Shown here piece by piece: positions 4,126 to 17,322 of a DNA stretch of 24,165 nucleotides. Origin of the DNA: a virus (lineage: Duplodnaviria; Heunggongvirae; Uroviricota; Caudoviricetes); IMG/VR virus record IMGVR_UViG_648276649_000003; one strand, given 5' to 3'. The notes under the pieces are model-generated. The model worked only from the letters and a program-made list of their open reading frames with translations. It did no database searches and was not told the DNA's origin. A program made the translations under genes and the position numbers. Position 1 is the first letter of the stretch. Each line of letters begins with the position of its first letter.

Positions 4126-4995
<870 letters not shown>

Positions 4996-5020: not shown

Positions 5021-5070
5021 CAGCACGATCTTGCATACGACGTGCTACGGTTTCATTTATCTCCGACCGG
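5021..5070 (+). repeat. Hairpin-repeat copy C: AGCACGATCTTGCATACGACGTGCTACGGTTTC
   Basis: Lies between the convergent stops of the GIY-YIG gene (4995) and pin (5053); palindromic stem AGCACG/CGTGCT with conserved loop TCTTGCATA; T-rich after the stem, so a possible bidirectional terminator. Confidence 0.55.
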
Positions 5071-5607
5071 AAACTTCTTATACAGTGTCGATATACCAAC
5101 ATCATAGATGATCGCCACCTTCTGGCGAGGAACGCCTGATGCAATTAATCGCCCGGCCTGCGCCCATTGTTCTGGTGTAAGTTTGGGACGACGTCCACCA
5201 ATTCGTCCCTGTGCGCGAGCAGCTTCCAGTCCAGCTTTTGTTCGTTCAACAATCAGTTCTCGTTCCATTTCAGCCAGGGCACCCATCACATGAAAGAAAA
5301 AACGCCCCATCGGTGTGCTGGTATCAATAGCATCCGTCAGGCTGCGAAAATTAACGCCACGTTCGCGCAACTCCTCAACCAGAATGACCAGATGCCGCAT
5401 ACTACGCCCTAGCCGATCCAGCTTCCAGACAACCAGAGTGTCACCTGCCGATAATGTCCTGAGCAGTTTTTTCAGTCCCGGCCTTTCGGACTTTGTACCG
5501 CTTATCTTGTCTTCAAAAATCAGCTCGCATCCTGCACAGTTCAGCGCATTACGTTGTAGATCTGTGTTCTGGTCATTTGTTGACACACGTACATAGCCAA
5601 TAAGCAT
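5053..5607 (-). CDS. pin: Serine-recombinase DNA invertase (Pin/Gin/Hin family)
   Basis: MLIGYVRVSTNDQ catalytic-serine N-terminus, resolvase core and C-terminal HTH. Start taken at the MLIGY methionine (5607) rather than the upstream in-frame ATG at 5643. Immediately adjacent to an invertible segment. Confidence 0.85.
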   Translation of the reverse strand: MLIGYVRVSTNDQNTDLQRNALNCAGCELIFEDKISGTKSERPGLKKLLRTLSAGDTLVVWKLDRLGRSMRHLVILVEELRERGVNFRSLTDAIDTSTPMGRFFFHVMGALAEMERELIVERTKAGLEAARAQGRIGGRRPKLTPEQWAQAGRLIASGVPRQKVAIIYDVGISTLYKKFPVGDK

Positions 5608-5633
5608 GGTAGATCTCCCTGACAAAAGCAGGA

Positions 5634-6146
5634 ATGATGCCATTTGCTCGTTATTTCTGCATTTTCATAAACGTTGGTTTGGGAGAAGGTTCTGCATTGC
5701 CGGTTGGCGTCCCCATTCCGTGGCCGTCAGCAACGCCACCAAAGGGATGGCTTAAATGCAACGGAGCCGCGTTCACTGCCTCCCAGTACCCTAAACTGGC
5801 ACTAGCCTATCCAGACATGAAACTTCCAGACCTGCGGGGGGAGTTTATTCGTGGATGGGATGACGGACGCGGGGTTGATACTGGACGTTCGCTGCTTTCT
5901 GCGCAGGGAGGTACTTATATCGGGGTTGACTGGAAGAATGACACGCAGGCAACGGTAGTATTAGCAACAGCAACTGCTTATGACCTTAGCCCATTCCAAG
6001 GGGATAAATCACCATCCACAACTGCATTACAGTCTCAGACAATTACGGGTAGTACAGCGATGAATAAATTGAATGTTGACTCTGGCAACTCCATTGTTAG
6101 CCGTCCACGTAATATCGCATTTAATTATATTGTGAGGGCTGCATAA
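5634..6146 (+). CDS. Silent alternative tail-fibre C-terminal cassette, expressed only after inversion
   Basis: Begins inside the crossover site; its ...GLGEG-SALPVGVPIPWPSATPPKGW... continues in frame from the GLGEG encoded at the other crossover site in the expressed fibre gene; no independent N-terminal constant region. Confidence 0.6.
   Translation: MMPFARYFCIFINVGLGEGSALPVGVPIPWPSATPPKGWLKCNGAAFTASQYPKLALAYPDMKLPDLRGEFIRGWDDGRGVDTGRSLLSAQGGTYIGVDWKNDTQATVVLATATAYDLSPFQGDKSPSTTALQSQTITGSTAMNKLNVDSGNSIVSRPRNIAFNYIVRAA
5665..5688. repeat. Left inversion crossover site (Hin/Gin/Pin type): TTCATAAACG-TT-GGTTTGGGAGAA
   Basis: Dyad-symmetric site; its 13-bp core TTGGTTTGGGAGA recurs inverted at 7486-7498; about 67 bp from the pin start. 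Confidence 0.7.
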
Positions 6147-6751
6147 TGACTAAAGCGATACTGAATAATAATGGTATTTCCACGAAATCAGGTGATATTA
6201 CTGTTTACAATTATGATTGTGAGACGCGCGAATATCTTTCTTCAACGGTTGAATACTTACCCGTTGGTGTCGGCATTCCTGCGAATTCATGCACTGACGC
6301 ACCTGGCGAAAGCAAAGACGGATTTGCTATTTGTCGAACAGCAGACCTTACATCATGGATATACATTATCGACAAAAGAGGCCAAACCGTTTATAGCACA
6401 GAGACGATGCAACAAGTTCAAGTAACGACACTTGGCGATTATCCCACTCATACAACACCCATTGCCCCTACATCATTATATGATAAATGGAATGGGGAAC
6501 AGTGGGTAACAGATGTAGAAGCTCAGCACGCAGCCAATGTCGCTACTGCCGAAGGAGAAAAGCTGTCGAGAACTGACCAGGCCAATGACTATATGAACAA
6601 AAAGCAATGGCCCGGCAAGGCCGCATTAGGACGATTGACAGAGACAGAAAAAGAGCAATATAACCTATGGCTGGATTATCTCGATGCGCTGGAATCTGTG
6701 GACATATCCAGCGCACCAGATATCAACTGGCCTGAGTCGCCGGAGGAGTAG
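6146..6751 (+). CDS. Tail-fibre assembly protein (Tfa/U-like), silent orientation
   Basis: Start overlaps the stop of the preceding cassette (ATGA coupling); C-terminal tail-fibre-assembly domain features. Confidence 0.75.
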
Positions 6752-7154
6752 GCCAGTCCGGGTCTGCTGTATCAACTCGCATCAGCAGCACCCGGTATTT
6801 TTTCCATTCGGCTAATGAAACAGTTTCTTCTTCCGTCGCGATCCCCGCATCAACGGCGTCCTGCCGCCATTCTATTTCAGAGTCAGCTGAAGCACGCAGT
6901 CGCGATTTTTCGGCTTCTGCCAACGCAATAATTTCCTCTTCAGTTGGTTCGGGAATATCTATCCATTCAGGTAAACCATCAGAATTAGGAGCGCGTAATT
7001 TTCCGTTAGGTGTTTCTCCGGCAAACTCAACGAATACGGAATAGTCTACTTCAACGGCATCGTCAGGCCAGCTACCTGCATTTTCATAAATACTTTTTAG
7101 CTCATCAGCGTAGAACGCATTTTCTTTTGCAGAATAAAACATATTAATCACCAT
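6723..7154 (-). CDS. Tail-fibre assembly protein (Tfa), expressed orientation
   Basis: Immediately downstream of, and overlapping, the tail-fibre gene on the - strand; acidic Tfa-like sequence. Confidence 0.75.
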
Positions 7155-7786
7155 CCAATCGCGAAAACTCTAAAGCCACCGTAGCCAGCACATGTAATCT
7201 GAGTTCTTGTTACCGTCGTATAGTATGATCGGCCCACCGCTAAGCTATATGCGGCTGTAGAACTCAAATCAACTGCCCCAGTTGATACATCACTAAATAA
7301 CGGAATCATGCACTCATTTGGGAATGCAATAGGGAAATTCGCAGTTACTGGTGTCACATAATCAGTTGTAGCAGCACCAAACCACTGCAATATGATCACC
7401 CGTTCTTTCCCGGCGACCATTGCCGGGATAGTCATATAGCCTGTAGAGCCGGTCACACACACCGCTGCGCCTAATTTTGCTCCCTCTCCCAAACCAAGGT
7501 TTTCGAGAGCCGTTTTCACCGTGCCATCCGATTTGATATCGCCAAACGGATTCTTGCGGCTTAACAGCAGCGCACGAAGCGCTGTAAGTAGCTGGTCATG
7601 CCGCCCCTTCTCCAGGCTGGCACCGGATGCCTCCACAACACTGCAAAGTTCCTCCTGCAACATGTCAAAGTAGTCATCATCCAGATCGGTGGCAGGTGTG
7701 CCGGTCTGGGGGTTACCACGGGTAAAACCGTTCTTACCCGCGCCGAACTTATCCTTCTGCGCGGTTTTCGTATCTATACGATGCAT
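7148..7786 (-). CDS. Side tail-fibre protein (constant N-terminus plus currently expressed variable C-terminus)
   Basis: N-terminus [29 protein letters not shown] is typical of Stf-type fibres; the crossover site falls at about codon 96-102 (NLGLGEG). Confidence 0.75.
7478..7503. repeat. Right inversion crossover site (inside the tail-fibre gene)
   Basis: Reverse complement reads TCGAAAACC-TT-GGTTTGGGAGAGG, matching the left site at about 21 of 23 positions. Confidence 0.7.
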
Positions 7787-7789
7787 GGA

Positions 7790-8374
7790 TTACTCCGGAT
7801 ATTTAAAAATTACGTAGGTATGCGACGGGCAGAGTTTGTTAAGCACACACTCGACAACGGTGTCGCCCCAGATACGCAGTGCGGAATCACAGGGATCGCC
7901 ACATGTCATCCAGGTGGTGTTGGTGTCGGCTGGCATGTTGACCTGCCAGTAATACCGCCATTCCGGCGCATTCACCGCGTCAGTACAGGCCGATGAGCAG
8001 GTGAACGTGCTTTTGTCGTATCGCGTGATGGTGGCGTCTGGTCTGCCCAGGGCAGCAAGCTGTGCAAGGTAAAAATCCTCATTGATGCCGCCCGCCAGGT
8101 TAACCTTCGCATCCAGTCGTTGCTGACGCTGGCGAAGGGTCTGTGTCCCTGCGGGAATACATTCATCCGGCAGGCCGCACAGACGCTCCCAGCGATTTAT
8201 CAGTTCGGTGGTGGTGCGCGGATCCAGCTCCCGCATCAGGGCATCCGCACGCTGATGAACGCGGGTTAATGACTGTGCCGCACCGGCAATCGCCGGATCG
8301 CTGGCTGACCACGCCGGACCGGGCGGCAGCAGTGCCGACAACAGACGGATGTAATCATCGTTTGTCACGTCCAT
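7790..8374 (-). CDS. Phage tail protein, Mu gp48 / e14 YmfQ-like (DUF2313-type)
   Basis: 194 aa, directly upstream of the tail-fibre gene in the conserved Mu-like order; sequence and length resemble e14 YmfQ as I recall it. Confidence 0.65.
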
Positions 8375-11462: not shown

Positions 11463-12127
11463 TGCACTGGCACCTTCAGAGGGATCACCGGCACAAAGCC
11501 GGGATGCGTAATGGCATTACGCCGGATAATGTCCGCGTCACGCGTCGCGTTATCAAACCATGTCGCCGCCAGCACCAGCGCGGGTAAAACCTCATCCGGT
11601 GTGCGCTGAATGATCCGTGCAGACTGTTCAAGGCGCGTGTTGATATCCGCATTCAGATCTGCTTTCACCCGGCGCAGCGCCAGAAACAGCGCATCACTGG
11701 TTGTACGGGACAACTCCTTATCAATTGCCGTATTCAGTGTGTCGCGAATGTCAGTCAGTTCTTCCCACGTCGGCAGATCAACCATGTTTTTCATCGCCGG
11801 TGCATTGTTCAGTGCCGGATGCGTGACGGAAGGCCAGCCGGTGCTCTGTGCAGCTGTTGTTGCCTGCCCCACTGCGGCATTCTGCATCACCGCGGAAGTT
11901 GTTGGCGCAGGCAATCGGGTGACGGCATACGCCGCTTCGCTGATTGCGGTCGTACGAAGGGTGCTGGCAACCACGTTACGCTGCTGCGTCGCCGTAGCGG
12001 TGGTTTTACTGTCCGTTTTCCAGACGCCGCGCGGTTGCAGATCACTGCCGAGGCTGACACCGGAAAGCGTTTTGATCATGGTGACCAGGTCGCTGGCGTT
12101 ACCATAAAGGCGTTTCCGGAACGGCAA
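11459..12127 (-). pseudogene. C-terminal fragment of a tail protein (Mu gp43 DNA-circulation-like), N-terminus deleted
   Basis: 222-aa ORF at the position of the gene upstream of the hub, far shorter than full-length homologues; abuts an unrelated sheath N-terminal fragment in another frame. Confidence 0.45.
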
Positions 12128-12395
12128 TCACATACAGCTCACCAAACGGGTCGGTCTGGCGATAAGCCTCGACCATACGCGCCAGCTGACTTCCCGCACC
12201 ACAAATCTGGCGTGCATAGTCTGCCGACGGCATCAGCACCAGACTGTTGGCAACAATCTCTGCACCGTTATTGGCATGACCAATCAGCAGCGATGCTCCG
12301 CTGTCCTGTGCAGTATTCGCAGCCTGGTTATCCATTTCCGCATAAAACAGCGGAACCAGCGTATTCGACGGAATGGTGTTAAAGCTTATCGTCAT
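12099..12395 (-). pseudogene. N-terminal fragment of a contractile tail sheath protein (truncated after about 98 codons)
   Basis: MTISFNTIPSNTLVPLFYAEMDN... is a canonical sheath N-terminus; the ORF stops at 12099 where the out-of-frame tail-protein fragment begins, so a deletion has removed the rest of sheath, tube and tape-measure genes. Confidence 0.55.
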
Positions 12396-12557: not shown

Positions 12558-12978
12558 TCAGGAAGGAAGGGGTATTTCGGTGTGATGTTCGATATCGCCG
12601 TCAGGCCCGTTACCGGGATCGAGATAATCAACATCAATCGCCAGCGTTCGCAGTTCATCCAGACTGTTCAGGTCATCCTGCTGGCGGGTATCGTCTTCGG
12701 TCAGCTCGCTGATGACCGAAAAATCGAACTGATAAATCAGCTCATGACGATTCAGATCCAGCAGCGTGCCGCCGTCATAGGTAATCGGGTTACCGCACGC
12801 TTCCGGGTGCCGACGTTGGTTTCGGCAGACGACGTAACTGCTCAACTATTGCTGCGCACGCCGCGCTCTGGAATTTTCGCCCCGCCTCGCTTATCAGGCT
12901 CTTACCAGCAAACGCTCCTTTGTTGGGGTGTCGCCAGTACGTGTTCACGCTGGGCGGAAAAGGCAGGATCAGCTTCAT
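12558..12978 (-). pseudogene. rusA-like Holliday-junction resolvase remnant (frameshifted or truncated)
   Basis: 62-aa ORF starts MKLILPFPPSVNTYWRH (RusA N-terminal signature) then ends prematurely; the downstream sequence continues in another frame (12558-12845). Confidence 0.45.
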
Positions 12979-13301
12979 ACTTTCAGGTCCCTCTCATGTA
13001 ACCAGTGGGTTGCACGCAGCCTTGCGTTTTCCTCACCGGCAAGCAGTGCGCGGATAATCCCGACCGCCTCGCTGTCGTCGTCCTTCACCGCGGTATGAAG
13101 CGTTATCCCCCGGGCCATGCCACGCTTTATCGTGATGACGCCTTTTTTCTCCAGTGCGCGAAGATGCTCCACCGCTGCATTCACCGAACGGTATCCCAGC
13201 ATGGTTGCCACCTCCTGATTGGTTGGCGGGAAGCCACGTTCTTTCTGATAAGAAATCAGCATATCCAGCACCTGCTGCTGGCATTGAGTTAACGTCGTCA
13301 T
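12975..13301 (-). CDS. LexA N-terminal DNA-binding-domain-like protein lacking the S24 peptidase domain
   Basis: 108 aa; LTQCQQQVLDML...GFPPTNQEVATMLGYRSVNAAVEHLRALEKKGVITIKRGMARGI aligns with the LexA winged-helix pattern (LT.RQQ.V...G.PPT..E.A..LG.RS.NAA.EHL.AL..KGVI.I..G..RGI); no Ala-Gly cleavage site or Ser/Lys peptidase domain follows. Confidence 0.6.
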   Translation of the reverse strand: MTTLTQCQQQVLDMLISYQKERGFPPTNQEVATMLGYRSVNAAVEHLRALEKKGVITIKRGMARGITLHTAVKDDDSEAVGIIRALLAGEENARLRATHWLHERDLKV

Positions 13302-13951
13302 GCCGCCATCTCCCTGACCAGTTTTTCCGCCTGCTGGCGAACCTGCGCCAGAAACGCCTCACCACATGCCTCAAGTTCATCGCGCCCGATGTAGCTGATT
13401 GCCGGTCCCTTCCATGTCTTGTCAAAAACAGCAATAGCACCAGCGAAAAAAGCTCCTGTCGGTACCTGCTTCTCGTCTTTCGGGATAAACCAGACAGGCA
13501 GTTCAAAACCAATACGCCCGCGAATAAAAGCAATATGATCTGCATCTTCCGGCCACCACACTTCGCTGGTGGCAGCTTTGATCAGGAAAACATAGCGCCC
13601 GCCCTTATCACGCATGGCACTGGCATGTTTCATGATGTAACGCATGCCGGTGATGTATTGCCCCTCATGCTGACTGGCGCGGCTGTATGGGGGATTACCA
13701 AAGGCAGCACCTTTAAGCTCCGCAAGACGTTCTGACCAGTCATGCGCCAGCGCGTTGTCTTCCGCCGTGTAATACGCGGCACATTTGGCGTTATCACCGT
13801 CAGTGAACAGATCCAGAACAAACGGGCCAAACAGGGTGTTAATTCCCCAGAAAATGTTGTCCGGCGTGCGCCACTGATCGCCCACTTCCTTCAGTTCATG
13901 GGCTGGTTTGTTCCGCAGTTCCACCAGCGTCTGGCAATATTTATTACTCAT
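13298..13951 (-). CDS. Phage-type N6-adenine DNA methyltransferase (Dam-like, orphan)
   Basis: NPPY-type catalytic motif (FGNPPYS). Start placed at the MSNKYCQ methionine (13951), which overlaps the upstream stop by one base (TAATG); an in-frame upstream ATG at 13984 is an alternative. Confidence 0.7.
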   Translation of the reverse strand: MSNKYCQTLVELRNKPAHELKEVGDQWRTPDNIFWGINTLFGPFVLDLFTDGDNAKCAAYYTAEDNALAHDWSERLAELKGAAFGNPPYSRASQHEGQYITGMRYIMKHASAMRDKGGRYVFLIKAATSEVWWPEDADHIAFIRGRIGFELPVWFIPKDEKQVPTGAFFAGAIAVFDKTWKGPAISYIGRDELEACGEAFLAQVRQQAEKLVREMAA

Positions 13952-14445
13952 TAAGCCCCCACGTAATTCCCTGACAGATACCACTCTTCACCCGATGCAG
14001 CGCGCTTGCTGCTTTTCCGTAAGCACCGCTCACGACGCGCCAGAAAATTGTTTCGTTCTGGCTGGGAGTGGCTTTCACGGAATGCCGCCATCCACACGGT
14101 TGCAGCACGACGGTATAAGCCCCTGGACTCCAGTTCTTCCGCCTGGCGGGTCAGGCACAAAATCACACGGGGATCGTTAGTGCCGACATAGAAATTGCGC
14201 ACAGGTCTGGTTTCACGAACTGGTTGTGGTTCCGGTTCCTGCGCTCTCTCAGTCAGGCGCGGGAAATGTCTGCGTGTATCTCCTTCACAACGGTGAGCCA
14301 CACGCCCACTCTGACGTAACTTGCTTGCTGACTGCAGAACGCGCTGCCGTGAGTAACCGGCAAAAGCATCCGCAATATCTCCGGAAGTACAGCCCGGATG
14401 GGCTTCAATGAATTTCTGAACGTCATTCAAAAGACTCATGCTCAC
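13951..14445 (-). CDS. Putative PerC-family-like regulator with an N-terminal extension
   Basis: C-terminal AEELESRGLYRRAATVWMAAF...RRERCL resembles the PerC/Pch signature as I recall it (AE.LE..GLYRRAA..W...RR..CL); identity is tentative. Confidence 0.45.
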   Translation of the reverse strand: MSMSLLNDVQKFIEAHPGCTSGDIADAFAGYSRQRVLQSASKLRQSGRVAHRCEGDTRRHFPRLTERAQEPEPQPVRETRPVRNFYVGTNDPRVILCLTRQAEELESRGLYRRAATVWMAAFRESHSQPERNNFLARRERCLRKSSKRAASGEEWYLSGNYVGA

Positions 14446-15383
14446 CCCCTGAATCCTGCCGGGATCTGGCTGTAGTCCACGTTGTCGTAACTGGCTTTGA
14501 AGTACGGGTCTTCGCGTTTTTCGGTGTACGTGCTGACGGACGGCGATAAGCGCAGGGAAAGCTCATCCCATTTTTCCCGCAGCTTCGACGGGCTGAGCAC
14601 GTTACGGCACCAGAACGGATCGCGACTGACGCGGCTGTACATCTCGCAGATTTGTTTATGAGTACGACCATCCTGCACACACATCAGGCGAATTTCGTTT
14701 GCCCAGGCTGTCCAGTTCGGTTCTTTGGGACGAACCACCTCGCCGTCACATTCGGCGGCCTGCTCGTACAGGGCGATGATTTTTTTCCAGAGCCACTGTG
14801 CGCAGGTCAAATCATCCTGCGTTCCCCACTGGCGCTTTTTAGGGCTGAATACAACCGCATCAGGATGGCGAGTTAAAAACTCCTGTTCAGCCGTCTGCGT
14901 GTCCGGTTGCGAAGCGTCCGGACGAGAAGTTTTTTTATCTGACGGATCATGTTTTGATTTTACTGACGGATCCCCGCCAGATTCTGACGGGTGAAAAACC
15001 GCTTTTTTGCCAGATTTCGACGCATCAAATTTTGACGGGTCAGATTTTGATGCGTCAGATTTTGACGGGTCAGAATCTGACAGTTGAGAAAATGCCGCTG
15101 CCTGAAGCTTCGCAACGTTAAGCTGATAAACATTCGACGCATTGCGGTTACCTTGGCGACGCGCCTTACGCGTTAACCAGCCTTCTGCTTCCAGCCGTGC
15201 GATAGCCGTTCTGACGGTACTCATCCCCGCGCCAATCTGACGGGCAATAGTTTCAATTGATGGCCAGCACACACCTTCGTCATTACTGAAATCAGCCAGG
15301 CGGGCCATAATTGCCACGCTGGATAATTTCATGCCTGACGCTGCGCAACCATCCCATACATAGCCGGTTAATTTAGTGCTCAT
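14442..15383 (-). CDS. Phage replication-initiation protein (N-terminal winged-helix DNA-binding domain, internal repeat linker)
   Basis: 313 aa; N-terminal HTH region; central low-complexity SKSD/ASKSD pentapeptide repeats encoded by 15-bp tandem DNA repeats; position next to the immunity region. Confidence 0.6.
   Translation of the reverse strand: MSTKLTGYVWDGCAASGMKLSSVAIMARLADFSNDEGVCWPSIETIARQIGAGMSTVRTAIARLEAEGWLTRKARRQGNRNASNVYQLNVAKLQAAAFSQLSDSDPSKSDASKSDPSKFDASKSGKKAVFHPSESGGDPSVKSKHDPSDKKTSRPDASQPDTQTAEQEFLTRHPDAVVFSPKKRQWGTQDDLTCAQWLWKKIIALYEQAAECDGEVVRPKEPNWTAWANEIRLMCVQDGRTHKQICEMYSRVSRDPFWCRNVLSPSKLREKWDELSLRLSPSVSTYTEKREDPYFKASYDNVDYSQIPAGFRG
14938..15085. repeat. Iteron-like tandem 15-bp repeats (CAGATTTTGACGGGT-like, at least 6 copies) embedded in the replication gene
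   Basis: Copies at 14978-14992, 15011-15025, 15026-15040, 15041-15055, 15056-15070 and 15071-15085, plus degenerate upstream copies; flanked by A/T runs (14930-14936, 15003-15008). Confidence 0.6.
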
Positions 15384-15392
15384 GACCGACCT

Positions 15393-15731
15393 CTATTTCC
15401 CTGAATTTACGACGAAACTGTTCGAGCGGGCTGAAGCACTCATGCTCATAGCCTTCACGGAGGTAGATAACCCGTTGTGTTTCCGGCTCCCAACGAATGA
15501 CTCTGACGGGCACTCCGTAGTGATCTTTGAACCAGCGGTTAACTTGTCGCAAAGGACTGTCTCCTTCTGCCGGTTAAAATCACCCACAGCCCACTCTGCA
15601 AAGCTGTGGGTTACAATTACCCTGCCACCTGGTACATTTACTGCATAGCAATACTCCACCTTCGCTTTTCCACCCGGTACAGGAAGCGCAATCAGTTGCG
15701 AGCGACGGTAGTGTGTTGTTAAACTATTCAT
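15393..15731 (-). CDS. Hypothetical phage protein (e14 YmfM-like by size and position)
   Basis: 112-aa ORF in the early-right operon between the immunity and replication genes; no recognisable motif. Confidence 0.45.
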
Positions 15732-16279
15732 GCGTTAGTTTCTCCACAGTCACGACACGCCACGGCGCCCGGAGCTGCACACTCGCGGGCGTCATTACTT
15801 TCTGAAATGCAAAAAATTTTGTAGACCAGTGCTGCATGCTCCTGCAGCTTCGAAATTGAGAGGTACAGCTCGTCGTTAATTGCTGTCTTCTCATGCGGTT
15901 CCACTACACCGTCTTCAATTGCTGAACGAATCTGTTTTGAATAACTGCCGATCTGTTCAATGACCTCCAGCAGGCGTTGGTTGATATCGGCGTTGTCCAC
16001 ATCCTCGACATCAGGAAGAGACACAAAGACGCCATTTGCAGACTGCGCCACAGCGTCAGCAATGAAGTGAGTTCCACCAGCACGTTGCAAAATCATTGCC
16101 CATCCCAGCGGGAAAATCTGATCGCCATCGGCACGAAGGCGGTTAAATAATGCGTTCTCTGTTACATCCAGCCAGTCAGCAGCTTCAGCGTAACCCCCCG
16201 GCAACGCTGCGATAGTTTTTCTGACAGCTTTCACGTACCACTCAGGCTGTTTTTCTACTTTCCAGTGATGCTTACCCAC
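15728..16279 (-). CDS. Hypothetical phage early protein (e14 YmfL-like by size and position)
   Basis: 183 aa, directly downstream of cro in the same operon; overlapping starts and stops. Confidence 0.5.
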
Positions 16280-16532
16280 GGTTCACCTCCTGTTCCTGTG
16301 GTTTAAACCCATTCTGGTTTTGGCTAGATTGAAAACGTGCCGGATAAAGAATCTGCATTTCGCTGACTTCACCCTTAAAAAAATTGGCTAAACGTTCTGC
16401 AAGCTCGATAGATGGAATCTGCTCCAGCCTCTCAATACGACTCAACGTCGCTGGATTGACTTGAACACCCGCAGCAACATGCTGCAAAGTGAAACCATGC
16501 GCCTTACGCACATTTCGTAATGGTGATTGCAT
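16272..16532 (-). CDS. Cro-like HTH (XRE-family) regulator
   Basis: 86 aa with HTH (GFTLQHVAAGVQVNPATLSRIE); divergent from cI; GGAGG Shine-Dalgarno 5 nt upstream of the ATG. Confidence 0.7.
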   Translation of the reverse strand: MQSPLRNVRKAHGFTLQHVAAGVQVNPATLSRIERLEQIPSIELAERLANFFKGEVSEMQILYPARFQSSQNQNGFKPQEQEVNRG

Positions 16533-16629: not shown

Positions 16630-17322
16630 ATGAACATAGGAAACCGAGTCAGACAACTTCGCCAAGCGAAGAACATGAAAATCGCCGATCTCGCTGAAGC
16701 AATAGGAGTAGATGCGGCGAACATCTCGCGCTTAGAAACGGGTAAGCAAAAACAATTTACCGAACAAACACTGAGTAATATTGCCAAGAGCTTAGGTGTT
16801 GATATTGCTGATCTCTTTACCTCTGCCCACAAAAGTAATACTGTATATAAAAACAGTAATAATGAGGATGTTGCGCAGGTGAAGGATGTGTTCCGTATTG
16901 AAATGCTGGATATCAGTGCCAGTGCGGGAAATGGCCTTATCCAGGGCGGTGATGTCATTGATGTGATTCATGCCATCGAATACAGAACTGATAATGCTGT
17001 ATCAATGTTCGGCGGACGACCAGCCAATCACATCAAAGTTATCAACGTTCGTGGGGACAGTATGTGTCCAACCATTGAGCCAGGAGATCTCATCTTCGTT
17101 GATGTCAGCATCAATCAGTTTGATGGTGATGGTATATATGTCTTTGGTTTTGATGACAAAATATACGTTAAAAGACTTCAAATGATTCCTGACAAACTGC
17201 TGGTGATTTCTGATAACCAGATTTACCGTGAATGGGGAATTACTAGCGAAAACGAACACCGATTCATGGTCTTTGGAAAGGTCTTAATCAGTCAGTCGCA
17301 AACCCTTAAGAGACATAATTAA
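16630..17322 (+). CDS. CI-like prophage repressor (HTH_XRE plus S24 LexA-like peptidase domain)
   Basis: 230 aa; N-terminal HTH (MKIADLAEAIGVDAANISRLETGKQ); C-terminal S24 signature (GDSMCPTIEPGDLIFVD ... YVKRL). Confidence 0.85.
   Translation: MNIGNRVRQLRQAKNMKIADLAEAIGVDAANISRLETGKQKQFTEQTLSNIAKSLGVDIADLFTSAHKSNTVYKNSNNEDVAQVKDVFRIEMLDISASAGNGLIQGGDVIDVIHAIEYRTDNAVSMFGGRPANHIKVINVRGDSMCPTIEPGDLIFVDVSINQFDGDGIYVFGFDDKIYVKRLQMIPDKLLVISDNQIYREWGITSENEHRFMVFGKVLISQSQTLKRHN

Follow-up and report, generated by a model that had tools for sequence, protein, structure and literature searches.

The closest described system to the locus studied here is the P segment of e14 with its invertase PinE, reported by Plasterk & van de Putte in 1985 (as cited in PMC4272514) and later by Goldberg 2014 (PMC4272514) and Kirigo 2025 (PMC12529663). 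Inversion of this segment by PinE has been demonstrated experimentally (PMC4272514; PMC12529663), and the e14 of K-12 flips in ordinary cultures (PMC4272514). The e14 repeat is given as TTGGTTTGGGAGAAGG (PMC12529663).

The DNA analysed here is a stretch of 24,165 nucleotides (the window). With a probability of about 90 per cent, we read one of its modules as a site-specific inversion switch that has two states, depends on Fis and an enhancer, and belongs to the e14 P-segment type. Its recombinase is 95 per cent identical to K-12 PinE (175/184); the pin-side crossover site agrees with the pinE-side site of e14 at 26/26 positions, and the fibre-side site with the stfP-side site at 25/26. The constant part of the fibre is one residue off K-12 StfP (compared by eye) and YmfQ is 98 per cent identical. 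The gene order (ymfQ, Sc-Sv, tfa, tfa', Sv', pin) is also the same, and in both elements the crossover codes for GLGEG. The variable cassettes, however, have diverged, with overall identities of 138/203 to StfP and 105/167 to StfE; the 201-aa Tfa is identical to TfaE at 113/198 positions, and the 143-aa Tfa is only distantly related to TfaP. The surroundings differ as well: e14 sits at icd, whereas the prophage of the window lies at thrW-proA with a CPS-53-like early region, and a GIY-YIG gene follows pin at the place that mcrA occupies in e14. Neither integration at icd nor the mcrA/lit flanks were found. Because the integrase lies beside proA and pin is followed by the GIY-YIG gene and not by mcrA, the module is e14-type and the element itself is not e14.

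The G segment of Mu and D108 is inverted by Gin (protein match with Pin at E 1e-93), likewise a serine invertase of the Fis-enhancer type, whose gene carries the enhancer at its 5' end. The invertase gene has its 5' end toward the site in both cases, the layout S(c/v)-U / U'-Sv' is shared, and the tail module of the window is Mu-like, with homologues of gp44-48. The DNA identity is only about 72 per cent, however; the G segment measures about 3 kb, its fibre parts are much longer, and in Mu no ORF is open across the invertase-side site. The P1 C segment has an invertase of the same family (Cin), an enhancer at cin nt 19-90 that aligns with pin, and 26-bp cix-like sites with an AAACC..GGTTT core; it differs in that the 3' end of cin is toward cixL and in its size of 4.2 kb with long inverted repeats. 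The R64 shufflon (Rci) and the p15B Min system also exchange the C-termini of adhesins or fibres by DNA inversion, the former with a tyrosine recombinase acting on several segments and the latter at six crossover sites. The switch of the window has only two states, since only two sites are present. The term shufflon, used in the original prediction by analogy with Mu G, P1 C and e14 P, is therefore loose for a two-state Fis/enhancer-type switch that is not a multi-segment Rci shufflon, although the analogy itself stands. The Salmonella Hin/H segment shares the invertasome design, with 26-bp sites and, about 100 bp from hixL, a 65-bp enhancer that carries two Fis sites (PMC3798978). Hin differs in that it inverts a promoter of flagellin genes instead of a coding cassette, and in that hin lies inside its segment.

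Components of the inversion module

The features of the module are as follows.

5053-5607, minus strand: pin, encoding a DNA invertase (184 aa) that belongs to the small serine recombinases of Gin/Hin/Cin/Pin type (Pfam, structure and PinE matches)
5518-5589 (pin nt 19-90): predicted recombinational enhancer, with Fis-consensus sites at 5571-5585 and 5523-5537
5662-5687: pin-side 26-bp crossover site, TTTTCATAAACG and GGTTTGGGAGAA on either side of the crossover dinucleotide TT (5674-5675)
5674-7497: invertible segment, about 1.82 kb between crossover centres; its inversion makes the window collinear with strain KW21
5677-6146, plus strand: alternative fibre C-terminus Sv', Collar type, unexpressed; ORF open from ATG 5634, 170 aa, StfE-like
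6146-6751, plus strand: tfa of 201 aa, TfaE-like chaperone of the Collar-type cassette (Caudo_TAP, E 2e-32; phrog_105, tail fibre assembly)
6723-7154, minus strand: tfa of 143 aa, chaperone of the currently expressed cassette (Caudo_TAP, E 9e-34; phrog_188)
7148-7786, minus strand: tail-fibre gene as currently arranged, 212 aa (Gp53-like_C, E 2e-9)
7484-7509: fibre-side 26-bp crossover site, CTCTCCCAAACC and GGTTTTCGAGAG on either side of the crossover dinucleotide AA (7496-7497)

Two copies, and no more, of the 13-mer TTGGTTTGGGAGA are present in the 24-kb window, one at 5674-5686 (plus strand) and one at 7485-7497 (minus strand). Chance predicts 0.01 matches, and two copies were found in 0/100 shuffled sequences. 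This core extends to a 21-nt inverted repeat (5669-5689 and 7482-7502, 90 per cent complementary), the best inverted repeat of the region. The degenerate invertase-site pattern TCNNAAACSWWSGTTTNNGA matches twice in the whole window (0.04 matches expected), at the two crossover sites. Both 26-bp sites have imperfect dyad symmetry, their half-sites agreeing by manual count at 8/12 positions (5662-5687) and 10/12 positions (7484-7509); they are opposed in orientation, have the matching centres TT and AA, and are the only two in the window. A 15-nt exact direct repeat (5657-5671 and 7076-7090) was considered as a third crossover site and rejected, as it consists of a half-site alone with no dyad partner.

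The dyad site next to pin and the inverted second core inside the fibre gene had both been predicted, and both are present, but the coordinates had to be corrected by 1-3 bases: the first site occupies 5662-5687 (26 bp) and not 5665-5688, and the second core lies at 7485-7497, one base off the earlier 7486-7498. The 67 bp given between pin and its site reach to the crossover centre (5674) when counted from the start codon of pin (5607), whereas the edge of the site is 54 bp from the start codon. The coding of GLGEG at both sites, claimed for the expressed fibre and the silent cassette, is seen in both ORF translations, that is, in the 212-aa fibre and in the pin-proximal ORF (...INVGLGEGSALPVG...).

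The pin product begins MLIGYVRVS; a 196-aa version of the ORF uses an upstream ATG. It matches the Pfam families Resolvase (E 9e-52) and HTH_7 (E 5e-13) and, over residues 1-181, the Gin structures 3UJ3 and 4M6F (E about 1e-93), with Ser9 present and VRVSTNDQ conserved. Together with the identity to PinE, these matches bear out the assignment to Pin-type recombinases, here a Gin/Pin serine invertase. The identical sequence was found on 998 public contigs, and the RefSeq pipeline PGAP labels the gene pinE. Residue 114 is Met; both Gin structure sequences have Val at this position, which we take to be an activating, Fis-independent substitution, and on that assumption Met114 would fit Fis dependence of Pin. 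A GGAG Shine-Dalgarno sequence lies 7 nt upstream of the pin ATG (5607). A simple scan revealed no convincing sigma-70 promoter for pin: over 5400-7900, promoter and terminator hits were no more numerous than in shuffled sequence, and none was upstream of pin.

The 5' end of pin is predicted to hold a Fis-site enhancer by positional homology. In the P1 record, nt 19-90 of cin are annotated as its enhancer, and pin, K-12 pinE, D108 gin and P1 cin all have the Fis consensus KNNYRNNWNNYRNNM at nt 23-37 and again, 48 bp on, at nt 71-85. The two consensus sites of pin together span 63 bp and the proximal one is about 97 bp from the crossover centre, in agreement with the published geometry of Hin. 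Because the Fis consensus is very degenerate (about one match per 128 nt), it is the position of these sites and not the motif itself that argues for an enhancer.

The fibre gene is composed of a constant part, Sc (about 7498-7786), and a variable part, Sv (Gp53-like_C, 7148-7497). The two tfa genes, predicted at 143 and 201 aa, were both found at these lengths and both match Caudo_TAP; they are convergent and their 3' ends overlap by 29 bp. In-silico inversion of 5674-7497 places the second cassette in frame behind the constant N-terminus of about 101 aa, and the resulting fibre of 253 aa is directly followed by the 201-aa chaperone, so that inversion would indeed swap the fibre C-terminus together with its cognate chaperone, as had been proposed. 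Compared with known receptor-binding domains, the two C-termini differ in kind: the fused Collar-type fibre matches the Collar domain (E 4e-15) and the tip of T4 gp37 (2XGF, E 1e-16), and the Gp53-like C-terminus weakly resembles the foot of the R1-pyocin fibre (6CXB, E 1e-3). The layout is that of a host-range module, with a constant N-terminus outside the segment and, inside it, two opposed C-termini that each have their own Tfa and are in frame when flipped. The window is in the state of the K-12 reference, called A below; the A-state junction reads TTTTCATAAACGTTGGTTTGGGAGAAGGTTCTGC with its partner, and those of the flipped B state read TTTTCATAAACGTTGGTTTGGGAGAGGGAGCAAA and CTCTCGAAAACCTTGGTTTGGGAGAAGGTTCTGC.

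Pin dimers would bind the two mutually inverted 26-bp sites (5662-5687 and 7484-7509), and on supercoiled DNA the Pin-bound sites and two Fis dimers on the enhancer within the 5' part of pin would form an invertasome. All four strands would then be broken at the central TT/AA, with Ser9 forming the phosphoserine links, one pair of subunits would turn by 180 degrees, and religation would leave the 1.82-kb segment flipped. Since the fibre promoter and the first ~101 codons sit outside the segment, the flip would replace the receptor-binding C-terminus, the Gp53-like type and the 143-aa Tfa giving way to the Collar type and the 201-aa Tfa. The Fis dependence, the supercoiling dependence and the strand-exchange chemistry of this scheme are those of the family and presumably extend to Pin.

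The carrier prophage and its decay

The prophage is integrated at thrW/proA with its integrase beside proA; a tRNA-Thr is annotated at the matching position of KW21, where the window is 100 per cent identical. The carrier, a myovirus prophage of the SfV/e14-like kind, has an early region (yfdN to yfdT) that resembles CPS-53. It is defective, its tube, tape-measure, head, lysis, late-control and most sheath genes being missing; the Q antiterminator and the late-promoter region have been lost as well. Alignment of the window itself reveals two deletions that are absent from Combat11I9 and KW21. The loss of sheath, tube, tape-measure and head genes claimed before is confirmed by this alignment, except that the sheath is mostly, not wholly, lost. 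Because the head, tube, tape-measure and late-control genes have recently been lost, the switch probably has no virion left to act on.

The remaining DNA is 100 per cent identical to the intact prophage of KW21 over 11,360 bp and 99.9 per cent identical elsewhere. The survival of the switch therefore reflects recent decay, which the original prediction had named as one reason and which is directly supported by this identity; the switch persists simply because the time was too short for it to decay. Its survival in a defective prophage had also been presented as notable, a view that we do not share, since the e14 of K-12, although it has decayed much further, still undergoes inversion (PMC4272514, PMC12529663).

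Alternatively, the switch might have been kept in the defective prophage as a host-beneficial defence toggle, in which a chimeric pin-proximal protein blocks phage adsorption. In the flipped state this product would be a 129-aa analogue of K-12 StfE2, composed of the leader MMPFARYFCIFINVGLGEG and the Gp53-like domain. StfE2 is reported to arise when the P segment of e14 inverts and to prevent adsorption of T2, and the inversion is reported to be reversible (Kirigo et al. 2025, PMC12529663). The window has a homologous pin-proximal ORF with the same leader and ATG codons at 5634 and 5637, the same leader occurs in Salmonella phage MET_P1, and the 129-aa B-state product exists on 13 contigs. 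We nevertheless consider the toggle unlikely. The intact sister prophage is 99.9-100 per cent identical, and persistence therefore needs no selection. The variable domain is ~35 per cent identical to StfP/StfE2 (an estimate from 138/203 overall), so that specificity would not carry over. Read on the opposite strand, the ATGATG of the leader is TGGCATCAT, a motif that is conserved ahead of invertase genes even in cases without an open ORF (P2-T22), and D108 has TGGCATGAT there and no leader ORF. The leader ORF is present with the e14-type site (K-12, MET_P1), absent in P2-T22 and D108, and overlaps a conserved non-coding motif. Both substitutions in the leader relative to K-12 are non-synonymous, and AGGA just 0-3 nt from the leader ATGs makes a poor ribosome-binding site. 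It is unlikely that the host has co-opted the switch in the manner claimed for e14, each flip toggling a short chimera of the leader and the facing receptor-binding domain; if it had, the result would be a reversible bet-hedging defence against phage adsorption. Owing to the second deletion, the SOS-inducible early operon now lies immediately upstream of what is left of the tail genes and might provide transcription.

Orientation of the segment in public genomes

Once its segment is flipped, the window aligns collinearly to KW21 over 9,228 bp with 99.95 per cent identity, whereas the native window aligns in three pieces, with 5669-7502 reversed. The exact 212-aa fibre of the A state was found on 65 public contigs and the exact 253-aa fibre of the B state on 14; of the corresponding pin-proximal ORFs, that of the A state occurs on 54 contigs and that of the B state (129 aa) on 13. 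Overall, about 18 per cent of the contigs are in the B state.

An A/G marker, the last base of the inner half-site, moves with the segment and the outer half-sites remain fixed (10/10 A and 10/10 B loci). Reciprocal hybrid sites are present in 20/20 loci, and the crossover maps inside the 13-bp core. This pattern has the signature of conservative exchange within the core, and comparison among related genomes indicates that the segment inverts in this way at the site cores. As far as sequences can tell, no part of the switch is missing, inversion preserves the reading frame, and both states exist in nature; the predicted Pin-type tail-fibre inversion switch with both of its sites is borne out by the sites, the recombinase, the frame and the natural flipped form. 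In relatives, inversion could in principle also be driven in trans by other Pin-like invertases, for example PinQ and PinR (PMC12529663).

In the assemblies CP021726 and PDLJ01000002 the contig ends overlap, untrimmed, by >30 kb, and the segment is inverted between the two copies of the overlap; both states are therefore present in the reads of those assemblies. The differences within the overlaps are nearly all indels. A true duplication was considered for the two Combat11I9 copies and rejected: the end and start of the record are collinear over >30 kb with 51 gap openings and 2 substitutions, and such gap-dominated differences point to an untrimmed circular overlap. Untrimmed long-read assemblies can unintentionally record heterogeneity at invertible segments.

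It is very unlikely that the switch of the window is a fossil, with intact parts in a copy that no longer flips (for example because pin is unexpressed) and with orientation differences that go back to old, fixed events. The promoter scan described above, which found none upstream of pin, is in line with this possibility, as are the four loci that share the prophage deletion and carry pin, all in the A state (n=4, by lookup of a deletion-specific 98-aa chimeric ORF); these four are probably clonal and, with about 18 per cent of contigs in the B state overall, carry little weight. However, e14 of K-12, with near-identical pin and sites, inverts in ordinary cultures (PMC4272514). The switch region is base-for-base identical to that of Combat11I9 (100 per cent over 3,001 bp), where both orientations occur in the read set of one assembly, and A and B states coexist among prophages that differ by less than 1 in 1,000 bases.

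Inverted repeats can in principle recombine through RecA, and draft assemblies can mis-orient repeats, but as sources of the orientation polymorphism in place of Pin both are hardly credible and were rejected: the uninterrupted identity of the arms is about 14 bp (the 13-bp core and one base, by manual reading), RecA needs some 23-27 bp, an assembler could not flip the segment without read support because ~14 bp is far shorter than the reads, and the crossover lies inside the core in 20/20 loci with reciprocal hybrid sites. Moreover, deletion of pinE locks the segment in K-12 (PMC12529663).

This locus is another, ordinary copy of a textbook phase-variation system that is already known, and its importance hardly extends past getting the annotation right. 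In the output of annotation pipelines, the B-state fibre appears as a pseudogene although it is intact, and the pin-proximal cassette as a gene of its own. The cassette pair itself is rare, being present in 2/5,426 complete E. coli genomes, and illustrates the exchange of cassettes at conserved crossover sites.

Organization of the switch and product of inversion

Table. Genes and crossover sites of the region 5053-7786.
5053-5607, minus strand: ORF for the serine recombinase Pin, 184 aa
5634-6146, plus strand: pin-proximal ORF, 170 aa
5662-5687: pin-side 26-bp invertase site, TTTTCATAAACG-TT-GGTTTGGGAGAA
6146-6751, plus strand: ORF of a tail-fibre assembly gene, 201 aa; Caudo_TAP match
6723-7154, minus strand, convergent: ORF of a tail-fibre assembly gene, 143 aa; Caudo_TAP match
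7148-7786, minus strand: ORF of the tail-fibre gene, 212 aa
7484-7509: fibre-side 26-bp invertase site, CTCTCCCAAACC-AA-GGTTTTCGAGAG

The 13-mer TTGGTTTGGGAGA occurs twice in the window, at 5674-5686 (+) and 7485-7497 (-), against a chance expectation of 0.01; the inverted repeat around it reaches 21 nt with 90% complementarity. Across the whole 24 kb, a degenerate invertase-site pattern matches the two 26-bp sites only. The originally predicted crossover coordinates are therefore correct within 1-3 bases. The term shufflon is a misnomer: with just two sites there are only two states, and the recombinase is of the serine, not the tyrosine, type. An exact 15-nt direct repeat, CTGCATTTTCATAAA (5657-5671 and 7076-7090; by our estimate, approximately 0.004 expected by chance), has one copy overlapping the outer half of the pin-side site and the other in the 5' part of the 143-aa assembly gene; it was rejected as a third crossover site because its dyad partner is absent. 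The motif CGTTTATGAAAATGCAG is kept upstream of the P2-T22 invertase gene, where it lies outside the crossover site.

In silico inversion of 5674-7497 keeps the reading frame. GLGEG joins the first approximately 101 fibre codons, which are constant and sit outside the invertible segment, to the second cassette, giving a 253-aa fibre (state B; the window is in state A) with the 201-aa chaperone gene immediately after it, as expected if inversion swaps the fibre C-terminus together with its chaperone. Comparison with known receptor-binding domains, also proposed originally, gave a Gp53-like_C match and a weak resemblance to the R1-pyocin fibre foot (6CXB) for the current variable end, and a tail Collar domain resembling the T4 gp37 tip (2XGF, E 1e-16) for the alternative one. 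The two ends are thus unrelated receptor-binding modules.

The pin-proximal ORF is a homologue of StfE/StfE2 of Escherichia coli K-12. Its 19-aa hydrophobic leader, MMPFARYFCIFINVGLGEG (5634-5690, +), reads through the crossover site, and the second cassette, previously described as silent, is thus provided with a start codon of its own whichever way the segment points. Inversion of the e14 P segment, the K-12 switch run by PinE, is reported to create the chimeric pin-proximal protein StfE2, which blocks T2 adsorption (Kirigo et al., PMC12529663). The homologous leader ORF would allow a similar adsorption block by the window's locus; however, the leader start codons coincide with a motif kept upstream of invertase genes even where the ORF is absent, and the variable domain has diverged from its e14 counterpart. 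We consider this role improbable for the window's locus.

Beyond the fibre gene lie Mu-like baseplate genes: the gp48 homologue YmfQ, then J, gp46, gp45 and gp44 homologues. Downstream, pin adjoins a gene for a LEM-3-like GIY-YIG domain protein (4171-4995, +; phrog_5356, function unknown), a slot occupied in e14 by the restriction gene mcrA. Related strains code beyond flxA for Dcm with EcoRII, for reverse transcriptases or for OLD/UvrD-like proteins, which suggests a hotspot for defence cargo at the GIY-YIG/flxA end of the prophage.

Both orientations in related genomes

Against strain KW21 (CP117672), the unmodified window gives three alignment blocks, the one at 5669-7502 being reversed; once flipped, it aligns as a single block of 9,228 bp at 99.95%. 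The fused KW21 fibre is the predicted 253-aa protein, intact; its PGAP (NCBI pipeline) label as a truncated pseudogene (KW21 locus L002, 7717-8238) is an annotation artefact. Exact-sequence look-ups in public contigs retrieved the A-state fibre from 65 contigs and the B-state fibre from 14 (54 and 13, respectively, for the two versions of the pin-proximal ORF). In all loci retrieved for mapping, ten per state, the outer half-sites remain with the flanks, and one A/G difference, at the final base of the inner half-site, travels with the segment. This pattern maps the exchange to within the 13-bp core and fits reciprocal, conservative recombination.

Two long-read assemblies, Combat11I9 (CP021726) and PDLJ01000002, carry the locus twice, once per state, at both contig ends. 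Collinearity of these ends extends over more than 30 kb, with hardly any differences other than single-base indels; this marks them as untrimmed overlaps of circular assemblies, and real duplication was rejected. The opposite states imply that both sequenced cultures held both orientations. The window's switch is 100% identical to a Combat11I9 copy over 3,001 bp. In these complete or near-complete records the terminal overlaps, with many indel frameshifts, duplicate the whole prophage, an assembly artefact.

Pin and its relatives

Pin has Resolvase and HTH_7 matches, can be aligned over its full length with Gin crystal structures (E approximately 1e-93) and has the catalytic Ser9. Residue 114 is Met; both Gin structure sequences have Val there, and this Val is an activating, Fis-independent substitution. 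In the genome record of P1, nt 19-90 of cin are annotated as the Cin enhancer, and Fis consensus matches lie 48 bp apart, at nt 23-37 and 71-85, at aligned positions of pin, pinE, gin and cin. In the window these are:
5571-5585: predicted Fis site, degenerate consensus, approximately 97 bp from the crossover centre
5523-5537: predicted Fis site, degenerate consensus

The geometry matches that of Hin, where hixL lies approximately 100 bp from a 65-bp enhancer that has Fis sites at both ends (PMC3798978). We infer a putative two-site enhancer in the 5' part of pin, relying on homology because the Fis consensus is degenerate.

The module is an allele of a known system, the e14 P segment, with which it shares Pin (175/184 residues identical to PinE), the sites (26/26 and 25/26), the constant fibre N-terminus and YmfQ; it differs in cassettes and host prophage. 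Mu G/Gin, P1 C/Cin and P2-like phage invertase modules have the same design and are more distant. Of 5,426 complete E. coli genomes, only 2 have the window's cassette pair and approximately 150 the right-hand cassette on its own, showing independent exchange of cassettes. The inversion switch is confirmed, and its original interpretation supported.

Decay of the surrounding prophage

The window is not e14: its integrase adjoins proA, with a tRNA-Thr gene between them (by identity to the KW21 annotation), its early region is CPS-53-like and its late region is homologous to SfV/e14. Deletions were scored against the apparently complete prophage of KW21.

Table. Features linked to decay or insertion.
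203-2899: IS66-family insertion, 2.7 kb; ORFs of 225, 115 and 523 aa in tnpA/tnpB/tnpC arrangement
12099-12395, minus strand: marker of deletion 1, a chimeric ORF of 98 aa in which the sheath N-terminus continues into out-of-frame sequence
12114-12123 and 12806-12808: deletion-linked junctions (comparison with KW21)

Deletion 1 (4.5 kb, with 10-bp microhomology at the junction) removed the N-terminal part of the DNA-circularisation protein, the tape measure, a tail assembly gene, the tube and most of the sheath. Deletion 2 (14.2 kb) removed part of the tail terminator, head genes, terminase, lysis genes, the Q antiterminator and neighbouring genes. The gene losses originally reported are therefore correct. 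The remaining DNA matches KW21 at 100% identity over 11,360 bp and at 99.9% in its other parts, in agreement with the recent decay proposed at the outset. Decay is so recent that a 2.7-kb module, even if unselected, would not have gained mutations, so survival of the switch needs no further explanation. In ordinary cultures, the far older e14 remnant of K-12 continues to invert (PMC4272514; PMC12529663).

An identical chimeric ORF occurs in a different, pin-less prophage remnant beside smpB (other assemblies, L029, L032 and L034-L037); the deletion allele is therefore common to prophages at two chromosomal sites. KW21 and Combat11I9 lack the IS66-family insertion in a flank that is otherwise identical, and a short target duplication is apparent around ACAAAAGTG. 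At 12806-16300 (-), loss of the Q antiterminator and the late region through deletion 2 has brought the remaining baseplate and fibre genes immediately downstream of the early-right operon (O-like, PerC/YfdN, Dam, LexA-like and RusA' genes). A CI-like repressor (16630-17322), which has a Peptidase_S24 domain, controls this operon; read-through into the baseplate and fibre genes upon SOS induction is conceivable.
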